Source: an uncultured Gemmatimonadaceae bacterium (GTDB lineage Bacteria > Gemmatimonadota > Gemmatimonadetes > Gemmatimonadales > Gemmatimonadaceae). Taken from it: a stretch of DNA of 64,000 nt. This document shows, one piece after another, positions 16,974 through 22,640 of this stretch. The stretch covers positions 128,001-192,000 of the forward strand of contig CAVXGK010000001.1 in NCBI GenBank assembly GCA_963761305.1, read 5' to 3'. Made by a program: the position numbers and the translations under genes. A model generated the notes under the pieces. It did not search any database. It saw nothing but the letters and a program-made list of their open reading frames with translations, and was not told the DNA's origin. Numbering within the stretch: position 1 is the stretch's first letter; each line of letters starts with the position of its first letter.

Positions 16974-17989
16974 ATGAAGTTCGGCTGGCGCGGCGCACTG
17001 GGAATCCTCGTCAGCGTCGCGTTTCTCTACTTCGCGTTCCGCAACCTGGACTGGTCGCGCGCGCGAGAGATGGCGCGCCACGCGGACTACGGACTGTTGA
17101 TCCTCAGCGCGGCGGTCGCCACCTGCATGTTTCCGCTGCGCGCGCGACGGTGGCGAACGATTCTCGATCCGGTTGCGCCGAAACTGCCGTTCGGCCCACT
17201 CTGGCGGTCCACCGCCATCGGCGTGATGGTGACGAACGTGATCCCGCTGCGTGCCGGCGAGCTCGCGCGGCCGCTCGCGCTCACGCGGCAGGTGCCGTCG
17301 GTGAGCTTTTCCACGGCGCTCGCCTCCGTTGCCGTGGACCGCGTGTTCGACGGGATCGTGGTCATGGTGCTCCTCGCCGTGGGAGTGGCGATCGCGCACT
17401 TCCCGACCAGTACGACGATCGCCGGCTACTCGCTCGCCCACGCGGCGGGATTCGTCGTGCTCGGCGCGCTCGCGTTGCTCGTCGCCTTTTACATCCTCGT
17501 CTTCTTTCCGAAAACGCTCATTCGAGCGTTCGAGCTCGTCGCGCGACGCGTCTCGCCGACGATCGAACGGCGCGGCGCCGAGATGCTGGCGCGCTTCTCC
17601 GAAGGGACTGAGCGTCCTCACGCACGCCGGGACATTTCATCGCCGTGTTCGGATGGACGCTCGCGCACTGGCTCGTCCAACCGCTCGCCTTCTGGCTCGC
17701 GTTCCGCGCCGTCGGCGTGAACGTGCCGCTCGCCGCCACGCTCATCGTGCAGGGCGTGATCGTGATTCTCGTGGCGCTGCCGTCGGCACCTGGGTTCTTC
17801 GGCGCGTTCGAAGCCGGCGCCGCGATCGGCCTTTCACTCTACGGCGTGGGCCAGTCGGAGGCCGCGACGTGGGCGCTCCTCTTCCACATCGCGTCGTACA
17901 TTCCGATCACGCTGATCGGCGGGTACTACGCGCTGCAACTCGGGTTCTCGCTCGGCGACATGCGCGCGCCGCCGTCCGACTCGACTTGA
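16974..17989 (+). CDS. Lysylphosphatidylglycerol synthase TM-region (UPF0104/flippase-like) membrane protein; two +1 frameshifts near 17605 and 17629
   Basis: LRARRWRTIL, NVIPLRAGELARP, VDRVFDG, LPSAPGFFGAFE. One extra G in each of gaaGGGactg and gccGGGacat joins three frames. Confidence 0.85.
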
Positions 17990-18871
17990 CCGCCACCGCG
18001 CGCGTCGCCGCGCAGGCCAAGGTCAATCTCTTTCTCGACGTCGGCGCGCGGGACGCGACCGGCTATCACGCGCTCGAGACCGCGTTTCTGCGCATCGATC
18101 TCGCCGACGACGTCACGGTGCGTGAAGCGCCGGGCCGAACGCTCGACGTGAGCGGCCCCGCGCTCCCCGCCGCCGGCCTGGGCCCAACAGAAGAAGAACC
18201 TCGCGTATCGCGCCGCCGCGGCGTACAGCGAGGCGGCCGGATGGCCCTCCGGGTTCGCGATCGAGCTGATCAAGCGAATTCCGGCCGGCGCGGGGCTCGG
18301 CGGCGGCAGTGCCGACGCGGGTGCGGTCCTTCGCGCCCTCGACGCGCTGTCGCCCCGCCCACTGGGCCCGCGACTCGTTGAGCTCGCGGCTACGCTCGGC
18401 GCCGACGTGCCGTTCATGACGATCGAGGATCCGATGGCGCTGGCATTCGGACGTGGCGACCGGCTCAAGCCCGTGCCCGCGCTCGAGCCACGCGTCATCG
18501 TTCTCGCCGTGCCGCCGTTCGCCATCGGGACGGCAGACGCCTACGCGTGGCTCGACGCGGATCGCGCGGCACAGCCTGACGCGAGGCGGCCGCGCACGGC
18601 TGAGCCTTTGGCGACCTGGGACGACGCGGCCGCGGCGGCGCGCAACGACTTCGCGGCGGTGGTCGCTCGTCGTCATCCCGAGATCGGCGCCATGCGCGAG
18701 GGTTTTCGCGCGGCCGGAGCGGCGATTGCACTGCTCGCCGGCTCGGGATCCACGGTTTTCGGCATTTTCGGCGCGGCGCCGGCCGTCTCTTCGATGAAGG
18801 TCGGCGACAACGTTCGCATGATCAGCACGTGGACGAGCGATCGAGTTGAACGGGTGACCGTGGAACAGTAG
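17986..18871 (+). CDS. ispE: 4-(cytidine 5'-diphospho)-2-C-methyl-D-erythritol kinase; +1 frameshift near 18192
   Basis: AQAKVNLFL, GYHALET, then in the next frame KNLAYRAA, KRIPAGAGLGGGSADA, LGADVPF, LAGSGSTVFG. Confidence 0.92.
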
Positions 18872-18956: not shown

Positions 18957-19065
18957 TGACGCGAGCTCTGCGGCAAGGAAATGGATGCGCTCCGCGTCCG
19001 CCTCCGCATAAGCTTTCCGCGAACCCGCTCGTCCGATGCTCACCGCCCAAGCCCCCGCGCCGCGC

Positions 19066-20019
19066 ATGGATGGATTAGCCGTACCGAGCCACGGCCTCAA
19101 GCTGCTCGCCGGGACGGCCAATCGGCCGCTCGCCGAGGAGATCGCGCGCAACCTGGGCGTCGATCTCTGTCGCGTGAACCTCGGCCGGTTCGCCGACGGC
19201 GAGATCTCCGTCCGCATCGACGAAAACGTGCGCGGCAACGACGTCTTCATTTTCCAGCCGACGAATCCGCCGGCCGAGAACGTGATGGAGCTGCTGCTGC
19301 TGATCGACGCGGCGCGACGCGCGTCGGCGGCGCGCATCACGTGCGTCATGCCGTACTACGGCTACGCTCGACAGGATCGAAAGGACCAGCCCCGCGTGCC
19401 GATCGGCGCCAAGCTGATGGCGAACATGATCCAGGCGGCCGGCGTCGACCGTGTGCTCGGCGTCGATTTCCACCAGCACCAGTTGCAGGGCTTCTTCGAC
19501 GTGCCGGTGGATCACCTGTACGCCATGCCCGTGTTCACGGCGCACTATCGCAAGATGCAGCTCAACGAGCCGGTGGTCGTCGCCCCGGACGTAGGCTCGG
19601 CGAAGATGGCGCGCGGTTTCGCGAAGCGCCTGAACGCCACGCTGGCCATCATCGACAAGCGGCGGCCGCAGCCGAACGTGTCCGAGGTCGTGAACGTGGT
19701 CGGCGACGTGGAAGGACACGATTGCATCCTCGTCGACGACATGATCGACACCGCCGGGACCGTGAGCGAGGCGGCGCGGGCTCTGCGCAATCTCGGTGCG
19801 AAAGACATCTATATTTGTGCGACGCACGCGCTGCTCTCCGGACCGGCGCGCGCGCGTCTCAACGACGCGCCGATCAAGGAAGTCGCGGTCACGGACACGA
19901 TCGCGATCCCCGAAGAGCGACGGCCCAACAAGCTGTTCGTGCTGTCGGTCGGCGAGCTGCTCTCCAAGGCGATTCGGTTCACGCACGCGGAGCAGTCGGT
20001 CAGTTCTTTGTTCGATTAG
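19066..20019 (+). CDS. prs: Ribose-phosphate pyrophosphokinase
   Basis: FADGEI, MPYYGYARQDRK, VAPDVG, IIDKRR, LVDDMIDTAGT, ATHALLS. Start could alternatively be 19036. Confidence 0.97.
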   Translation: MDGLAVPSHGLKLLAGTANRPLAEEIARNLGVDLCRVNLGRFADGEISVRIDENVRGNDVFIFQPTNPPAENVMELLLLIDAARRASAARITCVMPYYGYARQDRKDQPRVPIGAKLMANMIQAAGVDRVLGVDFHQHQLQGFFDVPVDHLYAMPVFTAHYRKMQLNEPVVVAPDVGSAKMARGFAKRLNATLAIIDKRRPQPNVSEVVNVVGDVEGHDCILVDDMIDTAGTVSEAARALRNLGAKDIYICATHALLSGPARARLNDAPIKEVAVTDTIAIPEERRPNKLFVLSVGELLSKAIRFTHAEQSVSSLFD

Positions 20020-20061
20020 AGACGTCTGACGTCAGAAATCTGACATCAGACGTCGGATTTC
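20020..20061. repeat. Six 7-bp tandem units (nGAnnTC) forming a 16-bp inverted repeat
   Basis: AGACGTC TGACGTC AGAAATC TGACATC AGACGTC GGATTTC; arms 20021-20036 and 20039-20054 with one mismatch. Confidence 0.85.
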
Positions 20062-20087: not shown

Positions 20088-20147
20088 CTCGCACCTGTCT
20101 CATGGTAGGGAGGACGCAGCCTCCCGAGAGTAGACGGACGGCGCGAG
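20088..20147 (+). promoter_or_regulatory. Putative L25 ribosomal-protein leader (5S rRNA loop E mimic)
   Basis: ATGGTAG(20102-08), stem GGGAGG/CCTCCC and CGAGAGTAG(20125-33), closed by GTC(T)/(A)GAC and CTCGC/GCGAG, ending 40 nt upstream of rplY. Confidence 0.75.
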
Positions 20148-20187
20148 CGGGCTGCGATGGGTCGACGTTCAGACGGAATTCACTGAA

Positions 20188-20853
20188 ATGGCAACAGCAT
20201 CTTTGAAGGCAACGGTACGAAGCGGCGCCGGAACGGGTGACGCCCGCAAGCTCCGGCAGGCCGGCACGATCCCGGCGATCATCTACGGCCACGGGCGCGA
20301 CCCGCAGAGCCTGTCGCTCGAAGGACGAGAAGTCGAGAAGCTCCTCAGCACGATCTCGGCGGCCAGCACCGTCATCGAGCTCGCGGTCGACGGCACCACG
20401 GCCCGCACGCTGATCCGCGAGGTCCAGCGCCACCCGGTGCGGCGCAACATCATGCACATCGACTTCCAGCAGCTGGTGGCCGGCGAGAAGGTCACGGTGA
20501 GCGTCCGCATTCGCTTCACCGGCACGGCCGACGGCGTTCGCAACTCCGGCGGCATCCTCGCCGAGACGATGCATGAAATCTCCGTTCGCTGCGATCCGTC
20601 GCTGATCCCGGAGTACGTCGAGGTCGACGTCACGCCGCTCACGATCGGGCACAGCATCCACGTGCGCGATCTCAAGCTCCCCGAGGGAGTGCAGGTGCTC
20701 GACGAGCCGAGCGCAACGGTGTGCGTCTGCACCGTGCCTGCCGCGGCGATCGAGGAGGCCAAGCCGGCCGAAGGCGCCGAGCCCACAGCGGCGGCCGAGC
20801 CCGAGCTCATCCGAAAGGTGAAGCCCGAGGACGAGGAAGAAGAAGCCAAGTAA
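20188..20853 (+). CDS. rplY: 50S ribosomal protein bL25/general stress protein Ctc
   Basis: ARKLRQAGTIPAIIYGHG, LIREVQRHPV, MHIDF, G..DGVRNSGG, IGHSIHVRDL; acidic tail. Confidence 0.96.
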   Translation: MATASLKATVRSGAGTGDARKLRQAGTIPAIIYGHGRDPQSLSLEGREVEKLLSTISAASTVIELAVDGTTARTLIREVQRHPVRRNIMHIDFQQLVAGEKVTVSVRIRFTGTADGVRNSGGILAETMHEISVRCDPSLIPEYVEVDVTPLTIGHSIHVRDLKLPEGVQVLDEPSATVCVCTVPAAAIEEAKPAEGAEPTAAAEPELIRKVKPEDEEEEAK

Positions 20854-20936: not shown

Positions 20937-21527
20937 ATGAAAGTCATTGTCGGGCTCGGAAACCCCGGAAAGGAATACGAGCGCACGCGACACAACGTCG
21001 GCTGGTGGGTCGTCGACCACCTCGCCGACGTTTGGCGTTTCGACGCGTGGAAGCGCGACGGCGAAGCGCGCGTCACGAGCGGGTTGGTGGGGCGAACCCG
21101 CGTGCGCCTCGTGAAGCCGCACACGTACATGAACCTGAGCGGATCCGTGCTGCGGCCCTATCTCCGCCGTCCGGCGTGGTCGGCCGCGGCTGACCTGATG
21201 ATCGTCGTCGACGAAGTCGCGCTGGCGCTGGGACGCTATCGCTTTCGCGCCAACGGAAGCGCCGGCGGCCACAACGGATTGAAGAGCATCGAGGCCGCCG
21301 TCGGGTCGCAGGACTATCCACGTCTCCGCATTGGCATCGCTCCCGAGGATCCGCGCCGCCGCGGCACTTTGAGCGACTTCGTGCTCGACGACTTCGGCAA
21401 GCACGAAGCCGACGCCGTGCTGGCGTTGATGCCGACGCTCACGTCGGCTCTGGAGCTCTGGATCTCGAGCGGCATCACTCCCGTCATGAATCGCTTCACC
21501 GGAGCGGCCACGGCCGCCGATGAATAA
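20937..21527 (+). CDS. pth: Peptidyl-tRNA hydrolase
   Basis: IVGLGNPGKEYERTRHNVG, KPHTYMNLSG, GSAGGHNGLKSI, RLRIGI. Confidence 0.97.
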   Translation: MKVIVGLGNPGKEYERTRHNVGWWVVDHLADVWRFDAWKRDGEARVTSGLVGRTRVRLVKPHTYMNLSGSVLRPYLRRPAWSAAADLMIVVDEVALALGRYRFRANGSAGGHNGLKSIEAAVGSQDYPRLRIGIAPEDPRRRGTLSDFVLDDFGKHEADAVLALMPTLTSALELWISSGITPVMNRFTGAATAADE

Positions 21528-21533
21528 ACCAGA

Positions 21534-22640
21534 ATGCTGAGACTTGGAATCGTCGGGCTGCCCAACGTCGGCAAATCCACCCTGTTCAACGCGCTGACGT
21601 CGGCCGGGGTGCTGGCCGCGAACTATCCGTTCGCCACCAAGGACCCGAACGTCGGACGCGTGAACGTCCCCGATCCGCGGCTCGACGTGCTGGCCGGCAT
21701 CGTGCGCCCCGAGCGCGTCGTGCCGGCGGTCGTCGAATTCGTCGACATCGCGGGTCTCGTCAAGGGCGCGTCGCAGGGCGAAGGGCTCGGCAACCAATTT
21801 CTCGCCAACATCCGCGAGACCGACGCCGTCGTGCACGTGGTGCGCGCGTTCGACGACGACGACGTGCTGCACGTGATGGGCGCCGTCGACCCGGTGCGCG
21901 ATCGCGAGGTAATCGAGTTCGAGCTCGCCCTGGCCGACCTGTCGATCGTGGAGAAGCGGCTCGACCGCGTGCGCCGCGCGGCCAAGACGGGTGACAAGGA
22001 AGCGCTGGCGGAATTGGGAGCGCTCGAGGCCGCGCACGCCGAGCTCAAAGAAGGCCGCGCCCTGTGGCACGCGCGACTCGCCGACGCACATCGTCGCACG
22101 CTGGCGCCGCTCTCGCTGCTCACGCTCAAGCCCGTCCTCTACGCGGCGAACGTGACCGACGCCGAGCTCTCGGGCGCGGAACACGAGGGCGCGCACATTG
22201 CGAAACTGCGTCGCGCCATCTCCGACAGTGGAGAGCCGGCCGAAGTCGTTCCCTTCTCCGCCAAGATCGAAGCGGAGCTGGCCGATCTCCCCGAGGAGGA
22301 CCGCCAGGCGTTTCTCGAATCGCTCGGCCTGGAGTCGGCCGGGCTCGATCGCCTGATCCGCGCCGGATACCACCTGCTGGGCCTCCAGACGTACTTCACC
22401 GCGGGCGAGCAGGAAGCCCGCGCCTGGACGATTCACCGCGGCGACACGGCGCCCGTCGCGGCCGGCGTCATTCACACAGATTTCGAGCGCGGCTTCATCC
22501 GCGCCGAGACGGTGGGCTACGACGAGTTCGTGGCGAACGACGGGTGGAAGGGCGCGCGCGAGAAGGGCGTTGTCAGGTCGGAAGGCAAGGAATACGTCGT
22601 CAAGGACGGGGACGTGATGCTTTTCCGCTTCAACGTTTAG
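21534..22640 (+). CDS. ychF: Redox-regulated ATPase YchF
   Basis: GIVGLPNVGKSTLFNALT, ANYPFAT, VDIAGLVKGAS.GEGLGN, IHTDFERGFIRAE. Confidence 0.97.
   Translation: MLRLGIVGLPNVGKSTLFNALTSAGVLAANYPFATKDPNVGRVNVPDPRLDVLAGIVRPERVVPAVVEFVDIAGLVKGASQGEGLGNQFLANIRETDAVVHVVRAFDDDDVLHVMGAVDPVRDREVIEFELALADLSIVEKRLDRVRRAAKTGDKEALAELGALEAAHAELKEGRALWHARLADAHRRTLAPLSLLTLKPVLYAANVTDAELSGAEHEGAHIAKLRRAISDSGEPAEVVPFSAKIEAELADLPEEDRQAFLESLGLESAGLDRLIRAGYHLLGLQTYFTAGEQEARAWTIHRGDTAPVAAGVIHTDFERGFIRAETVGYDEFVANDGWKGAREKGVVRSEGKEYVVKDGDVMLFRFNV

Follow-up and report, generated by a model that had tools for sequence, protein, structure and literature searches.

A structured RNA element located directly upstream of rplY in an uncultured member of the Gemmatimonadaceae carries the AUGGUA/GAGAGU core of 5S rRNA loop E and is a real r-leader that appears to be unpublished. 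In E. coli, loop E is the binding site of bL25 and this protein represses the translation of rplY (PMC4408793). The element described here probably works as a cis-acting leader through which a two-domain bL25 represses its own translation by rRNA mimicry, a reading derived from the comparison of related genomes. It lies immediately 5' of a ribosomal protein gene and has a conserved and covarying secondary structure, as expected of r-leaders; resemblance to the rRNA binding site, an optional criterion for this type of RNA, extends to six of seven loop E positions identical to those of the genome's own 5S.

The loop E copy in the prs-rplY spacer

The element occupies part of the 168-nt spacer between prs and rplY, in the gene order prs, rplY, pth, ychF. 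Its components and the surrounding genes in the window (the whole stretch of 64,000 nucleotides that was analysed) are given below; 5S positions (73-78, 98-103, 72/104, 80-96) follow the E. coli numbering of loop E.

19036..20019, + strand: prs, ribose-phosphate diphosphokinase, the upstream gene (TIGR01251, 388.5 bits)
20088..20092, + strand: P1 5' strand of the lower arm, CTCGC, pairing with GCGAG at 20143-20147
20095..20100, + strand: P2 5' strand, which includes GTCT (20097-20100, + strand) and pairs with 20136-20141 (1x4 junction) or with 20132-20137 (register of the initial annotation)
20101..20107, + strand: mimic of the loop E 5' strand, C followed by AUGGUA, the hexamer being identical to the own 5S; C20101 stands in place of 5S G72 and ATGGTA (20102-20107) is the equivalent of 5S 73-78
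20108..20113, + strand: P3 5' strand GGGAGG, the stand-in for 5S helix IV
20114..20120, + strand: apical loop ACGCAG (20114-20119) plus C20120, with GCAGC (20116-20120) as 5' strand of the putative pseudoknot
20120..20125, + strand: P3 3' strand CCTCCC, pairing with 20108-20113
20126..20131, + strand: mimic of the loop E 3' strand, GAGAGU (5S 98-103), identical to the own 5S; the sequence reads GAGAGTA (20126-20132) and then GAC (20133-20135)
20132..20135, + strand: A-rich 3' bulge below loop E, a putative hinge
20136..20147, + strand: P2 and P1 3' strands of the lower arm
20150..20156, + strand: GGCUGCG, proposed 3' strand of the pseudoknot, with core GCUGC (20151-20155)
20157..20187, + strand: AU-richer spacer with a weak SD-like GGA (20175-20177), the probable landing region of 30S/bS1
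20188..20853, + strand: rplY, two-domain bL25/Ctc of 221 aa (TIGR00731, 169.5 bits; cut-off 73.1)
20937-21527, + strand: pth (TIGR00447), 3' of rplY
21534-22640, + strand: ychF (TIGR00092), in the same downstream cluster as pth

The rplY product is the presumed ligand and rplY itself the presumed regulated gene. Residues R11, R20, Y33, H90 and D92 of bL25 take part in RNA binding, and in an alignment these residues of the N-domain match those of a solved bL25. A scan for promoters and terminators found no sigma-70-like promoter and no terminator-like site on the + strand. Of seven RNA runs listed, four were searched, and in three of them contigs of relatives, at a small share, cover the element: two contigs in X1 extend as far as the beginning of rplY, and X2 and X6 have one contig apiece that joins the end of prs to the element. 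Since neither the strand, nor a start, nor a single transcript can be read from such contigs, they are no evidence of expression.

Other sequence peculiarities occur nearby. Right after the prs stop, positions 20022-20053 form an imperfect palindrome of TCTGA-type units, and at the same site 3' of prs the relatives have other tandem or inverted short repeats with units of 7-8 nt, a family-wide habit of low-complexity intergenic sequence. Farther upstream, the ORFs between 16974 and 18871 appear split over frames, possibly by assembly frameshifts; judging from the translations, those at 16974-17720 and 17645-17989 are presumably lysylphosphatidylglycerol-synthase-like and that at about 17990-18871 ispE-like.

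The initial annotation had recognized in this leader the two strands of 5S loop E flanking a substitute for helix IV, and its reading of the sequence was correct, with ATGGTA, GGGAGG, ACGCAG, CCTCCC and GAGAGTA in their places. The mimicry holds for the core, in which AUGGUA and GAGAGU are exact and six of the seven non-canonical pairs are kept, but not for G72·A104 and U80·G96. The single 5S gene detected in the genome reads GAUGGUA and GAGAGUA on its two strands, closed by a C-G pair, and has the U80·G96 wobble, whereas pair 80-96 is G-C in all 39 leaders that were located through the gene; position 72 is G in just 3 of 108 leaders, the pair 72/104 being G/A in 3 of 108, and the L25 site of seven pairs is not present in full. 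In the 5S complex an amino group of L25 is placed near U80, according to the available part of PMC1976436. Compared with loop E and helix IV of 5S rRNA (RF00001), the leader shares the AUGGUA/GAGAGU core, the canonical closing pair and a helix above it; it differs in being a cis-element of an mRNA, in the asymmetric bulge and variable stem that replace helix V, in the distance between strands (18 nt, versus 20 in 5S), in the loss of G72·A104 from most copies and in the change of U80·G96 to G-C.

With strands 10-30 nt apart, AUGGUA/GAGAGU occurs four times in the genome (the leader, the 5S gene and two other places), and the number expected by chance is 0.74 genome-wide and about 1e-5 in one given 168-nt spacer, which argues against coincidence at this locus. 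It is also hardly credible that the match is a relic of a 5S gene, in view of a helix and loop unlike the own 5S helix IV and of changes that are compensatory, or that the AUG of AUGGUA initiates a regulatory uORF. This AUG is invariant and the ORF of the window overlaps the rplY start out of frame; however, besides the compensatory changes, ORF lengths among the 108 leaders scatter from 10 to 143 codons and the frames are mixed (18, 31 and 59), and the candidate uORF at 20102 was rejected on these grounds.

Conservation and occurrence of the element

In a first search of 31 genomes rplY was found in 29, and the element in 17 of 17 from the window's genus and 0 of 12 from two other families. 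A family-wide search found rplY in 193 of the 201 searched. The 123 Gemmatimonadaceae rplY leaders examined belong to 57 genera and were sorted into class A (this element; 39 loci, 7 genera), class B (14 loci, 5 genera), class C (12 loci, 4 genera) and leaders with nothing recognised (58 loci, 41 genera), with no genus mixed between classes, in a non-random sample for which 40 regions were picked by genus after the first round. All 39 gene-anchored leaders from the seven carrier genera have the AUGGUA hexamer, so the motif is conserved in relatives, a point on which the initial annotation had let its proposal stand or fall. All 15 further genomes fetched by class A genus alone carry the element, and outside the family the core was seen in 0 of 47 readable leaders (three more regions were not orientable).

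The tie to rplY suggested by this single locus proved general: a strict pattern run over 185,579 species genomes gave 103 matches, all of them preceding rplY, which was identified by tblastn in 102 cases and by direct reading in one. Among the 80 matches listed, 76 are from Gemmatimonadota, one from a Burkholderiales bin and three from genomes labelled only "bacterium". The Burkholderiales-bin contig (L215, 2.2 kb), which couples a class A leader with a Gemmatimonadaceae-type RplY, is probably mis-binned. A search of the genome with the class A model returned this locus alone, and the element is therefore single-copy; the same search in 71 further genomes found none, with 70 candidates scored per genome and no positive control. 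Four proteins were concatenated for a tree of 54 genomes, in which class A forms one clade (0.898; SH-aLRT 88, quick tree) that adjoins an element-free genus and class C, and class B stands apart and is not resolved as a single clade. Genomes marked as unpublished were not needed for any statement made here. In one genus of the same taxonomic class (G466, G471 and G481), the match covers only the N-terminal approximately 100 aa of RplY, apparently a short one-domain bL25, and two leaders of that genus (L279, L283) have no loop E copy.

The 142 loci gathered collapse to 108 distinct leaders; as 103 loci were retrieved with a pattern in which core and loop are fixed, invariance of these parts was judged on the 39 gene-anchored loci. 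P3 is paired in 100% of the sequences and shows two-sided changes at four of its six pairs: pair 1 occurs as G-U, G-C, A-U or C-G, pair 3 as G-C or A-U, pair 4 as A-U or C-G and pair 5 as G-C or A-U. The 6-bp helix, whose failure to covary the initial annotation had named as a refutation, is in this way conserved and covarying. In the 28 closest sequences, RNAalifold gives two-sided changes at three of six P3 pairs. For the whole structure, none of 500 shuffles reached the observed pairing or covariation score, figures that are inflated by kinship among the related genomes, and the paired fraction dropped to 31-56% in slid controls. The minimum free energy of the leader is ordinary (z = 0.01); folding of this kind cannot score the non-canonical pairs of loop E.

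Below loop E, two registers of P2 compete. The GTCT/AGAC pairing of the initial annotation is isoenergetic with its rival in the window (-23.8 vs -23.9 kcal/mol) and is possible in 8 of the genus's 18 loci; the rival register of the window leaves AGAC unpaired, and it is this other junction that the orthologues favour. An asymmetric junction, in which the 3' side exceeds the 5' side by 2-5 bases, was found in 99 of 108 leaders, compared with 14 for a near-symmetric junction and 14 for the mirror control. In constrained folds this 3' excess amounts to 2-5 nt in 85 of 107 and to exactly 3 nt in 56. The outer closure by CTCGC and GCGAG is indeed present (20088-20092/20143-20147), and the enclosing stem has a median of 12 bp in 107 carriers; the weaker TTTGAA/TTCAGA pairing that had been proposed to reach toward the RBS is not conserved, with both halves in 1 of 108 leaders. 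Enclosing pairs exceed the shuffled mean in 92 of 107 per-sequence folds, and it is on these folds that the lower stem rests, given that RNAalifold predicts P3 alone and no lower stem in the 28 close sequences. Duplex folding of the lower stem in short windows is weak (z below -1.64 in 37 of 108), a consequence of the side hairpin inserted in several genera. A variable, well-paired side hairpin of this sort is inserted into the lower arm, on its 5' strand, in g33-like leaders (L045, L094-L097 and about 40 scan loci), several of which have a -10-like hexamer, TATATT, just 5' that suggests an internal rplY promoter.

Proposed apical loop pairing and other classes of rplY leader

The element is longer than initially described and reaches 20156, the end of GGCTGCG, a conserved heptamer whose complement lies in the apical loop. 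GCAGC is found in all 39 gene-anchored leaders, with variation restricted to the C that precedes it (2 cases), and GCUGC, a strand that was not part of the search pattern, lies 18-23 nt past the core in 106 of 108 leaders, the remaining two retaining CUGCG. At least five Watson-Crick pairs can form between the loop and the downstream stretch in 108 of 108 leaders, as against 25 of 108 and 0 of 108 in control windows. The four central pairs are invariant, and covariation therefore neither supports nor refutes this pairing; when metagenomes were scanned for non-A bases at the A of the loop, the one match was unrelated and due to chance. The upper arm (six non-canonical and six canonical pairs) and the lower arm are equally long and are separated by the bulge, and arm lengths and bulge are conserved, as is the linker, of 3 nt in 63 of 107. 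The matched arms and the asymmetric hinge suggest that GCAGC/GCUGC is a fold-back pseudoknot, and this is the likely arrangement: the RNA would be bent at the A-rich bulge, with the loop reaching the base of the stem.

The same complementarity could instead belong to a two-state switch, in which GCAGC/GCUGC pairing excludes the loop E hairpin and bL25, by binding, shifts the balance. In the window's genus the duplex does extend to 7 bp, into P3 (-13.7 kcal/mol), and for 16 of 108 leaders a nested alternative is no more than 2 kcal/mol away, but the pairing is limited to 5 bp in most genera (75 of 108), the alternative fold is a median of 6.2 kcal/mol less stable and it leaves the RBS as accessible as before, with 8.5 vs 8.6 unpaired of 18 nt. 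As the conserved arm length, bulge and linker also fit a pseudoknot that coexists with the hairpin, the switch appears improbable.

A g49-like subgroup of class A (L055, L098-L100, L160, L208-L210, L239) has an inserted 5' hairpin whose loop pairs just after GCUGC. This second loop pairing, seen in nine sequences, is two-sided at 2 of 7 pairs.

Class B leaders (14 in genera g25, g34, g37, g41 and g72: L042, L046, L079, L083, L106-L109, L249, L251, L252, L255, L273, L274) are built as stem, GAGAGG-C, upper stem and loop, G-AGGGUA, stem, with the order of the loop-E-like strands reversed with respect to 5S; the own 5S was ordinary in the four class B genomes checked. The stems are 100% paired with two-sided changes. 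Four inner positions equal those of 5S (78·98, 77·99, 76·100 and 75·101) and two differ, with G·G at 74·102 and A·G at 73·103. Since the two isosteric submotifs that make up loop E are related by a rotation of 180 degrees (PMC2952876), G·G is a plausible substitute for U·G. In class B the loop at the hairpin tip pairs with CCGGA, a stretch beginning 19-24 nt before the AUG, beside the SD, and 2 of 7 of these pairs are two-sided in the 14 sequences, a small set in which the central CCGG is self-complementary. The existence of a second topology at the same gene indicates, in this comparison, that selection acts on the loop E core and on the pairing of the loop with a downstream strand. These statements use the 14 structured matches at rplY only; a loose class B pattern tried on 401 genomes was mostly noise (86 genomes; similar in a backward control) and was discarded. 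Several class B copies have a -10-like hexamer a few bases upstream, and one match to the permuted pattern outside the family (L024) lies within a low-complexity repeat.

E-loop submotifs recur in many RNAs, as reported in the available text of PMC2952876, and the loop E copy might thus be an architectural or metal-binding module of an RNA that senses a metabolite or another protein, or that stabilises a processed rplY mRNA. The loss of the outer pairs of the 5S site agrees with such a role, and the lack of variation in the loop and the pseudoknot strand suggests that more than base pairing is constrained. Against it stand twelve bases identical to 5S that always precede the gene of the loop E binding protein, the strand-swapped version at the same gene in other genera and the fact that no riboswitch family was significant; we regard this possibility as unlikely and favour recognition by bL25.

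Class C (12 loci in g32, g48, g53 and g74: L054, L058, L073, L077, L089, L111-L117) is a third conserved structured motif before rplY and possibly another bL25 leader. It consists of a basal stem, internal loops, GGG/CCC, a 3-nt bulge and CCGG-loop-CCGG, with no resemblance to loop E; the four genera cluster in a single clade near class A, and the four leaders scanned had no Rfam match. Genus-specific conserved stretches were also observed in rplY leaders with no class assigned: L051 and L110 (g45), L036 and L124 (g18), and L057, L119 and L120 (g52).

Proposed control of rplY and relation to known operators

Upstream of the class A element the gene is prs in 105 of 108 carriers. The core ends 51-64 nt before the AUG and the structure 27-38 nt before it (mode 32), so that it does not overlap the RBS, and no conserved pairing that sequesters the RBS was found among the leaders. 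The intervening spacer has an A+U content of 0.54, vs 0.32 for the window, and the SD duplex of the window amounts to -3.5 kcal/mol. A weak SD was considered as a mark of carriers, which is apparent in comparison with other families (-6.4 kcal/mol) and fails within the family, where the median is -4.1 in carriers and -3.8 kcal/mol in genera that lack the element.

Free bL25 in excess of 5S rRNA would very probably bind the loop E copy through its N-terminal domain. In the mechanism proposed, surplus bL25 would occupy the leader in this way; the leader would bend at the A-rich bulge and the apical loop would meet the stem base to give the pseudoknot; and binding would stabilise this compact fold, which ends about 32 nt before the AUG. 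Placed at the 5' edge of the AU-rich landing region with its weak SD, the bound fold may hinder loading of 30S/bS1 or, alternatively, trap a non-productive complex; in either case translation of rplY would fall.

The usual 30S footprint would not reach a structure that ends 27-38 nt before the AUG. This distance is a reason to consider that bL25 binds with another output, such as processing, decay, elongation into rplY-pth-ychF or stimulated translation, and pseudoknots are moreover high-affinity targets of bS1 in the available part of PMC10931766. The + strand offers no terminator-like site, the paired strand of class B abuts the SD and known r-leaders are repressive, and outputs of these kinds are accordingly quite improbable. 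Repression from a distance has a precedent in the mycobacterial S15 (rpsO) pseudoknot, which acts from upstream of the initiation site (PMC10931766). The pseudoknots of uS15 rpsO (E. coli and mycobacteria), the uS4 alpha operon and bL20 site 1 (PMC10931766) likewise control initiation and are bound by protein, that of mycobacterial rpsO also lying 5' of the initiation site; they differ from the present element in ligand and fold, here a predicted pairing of hairpin tip with hairpin base across arms of about 12 bp.

The known family of L25 leaders, RF03131 of Gammaproteobacteria, is likewise a structured RNA 5' of rplY, with bL25 as presumed ligand and translational feedback as presumed output. 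RF03131 occurs with short L25, whereas a two-domain bL25/Ctc of 221 aa, a loop E copy and a probable pseudoknot are found here; a weak, atypical SD is a mark of RF03131, and the SD of this leader, itself weak, is equally so in genera of the family that lack the element. The Rfam comparison called for by the initial annotation gave no family above its gathering score (cmscan of the region), all matches were far below gathering scores in the leaders of 15 relatives, and RF03131 had no match in the genome at E<=1, with an E. coli control over the cut-off. The element is thus probably an L25 autoregulatory operator in its working, yet not a member of RF03131.

The rplY leader of E. coli showed no band shift with isolated L25 (Aseev, Bylinkina and Boni, 2015, PMC4408793), and hairpin HII of this leader is unlike loop E and has been reported only with short one-domain L25, so far as the accessible text goes (PMC4408793; PMC10931766). 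The gammaproteobacterial leader is the only L25 leader in the available part of a survey, which has no mention there of a Gemmatimonad one (Eckert and Weinberg, 2020, PMC7247131); L25 does not appear in the main text of PMC11109978, whose supplement of 30 ribosomal leader candidates may bear on novelty; and the permuted RNAs covered in the available text of PMC10085705 include no leader. No published loop E mimic before rplY was found in the literature searched, in which subscription papers were mostly outside the scope.

Given that the only published L25 operator is unlike loop E, showed no band shift and was thought limited to short L25, the element bears on two points, namely the recognition of an mRNA by L25 through a copy of its rRNA contact and the self-regulation of long, Ctc-type proteins. 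The 5S-L25 complex has been solved at atomic resolution, and for this reason the natural variants (the lost G72·A104, the changed U80·G96 and the class B substitutions) map the minimal binding site. That two-domain bL25/Ctc is autoregulated by true loop E mimicry in two topologies, class A and the permuted class B, both acting through a fold-back pseudoknot toward the RBS, is put forward here tentatively. If true, the Gemmatimonadaceae would possess two r-leaders that are natural permutations of each other, and an operator of new architecture, in which binding of the protein to a helix is converted into repression by folding back. The element represents a new r-leader rather than a new class of biology, and the A/B pair illustrates that one presumed regulatory solution can be built twice, with its strands swapped.
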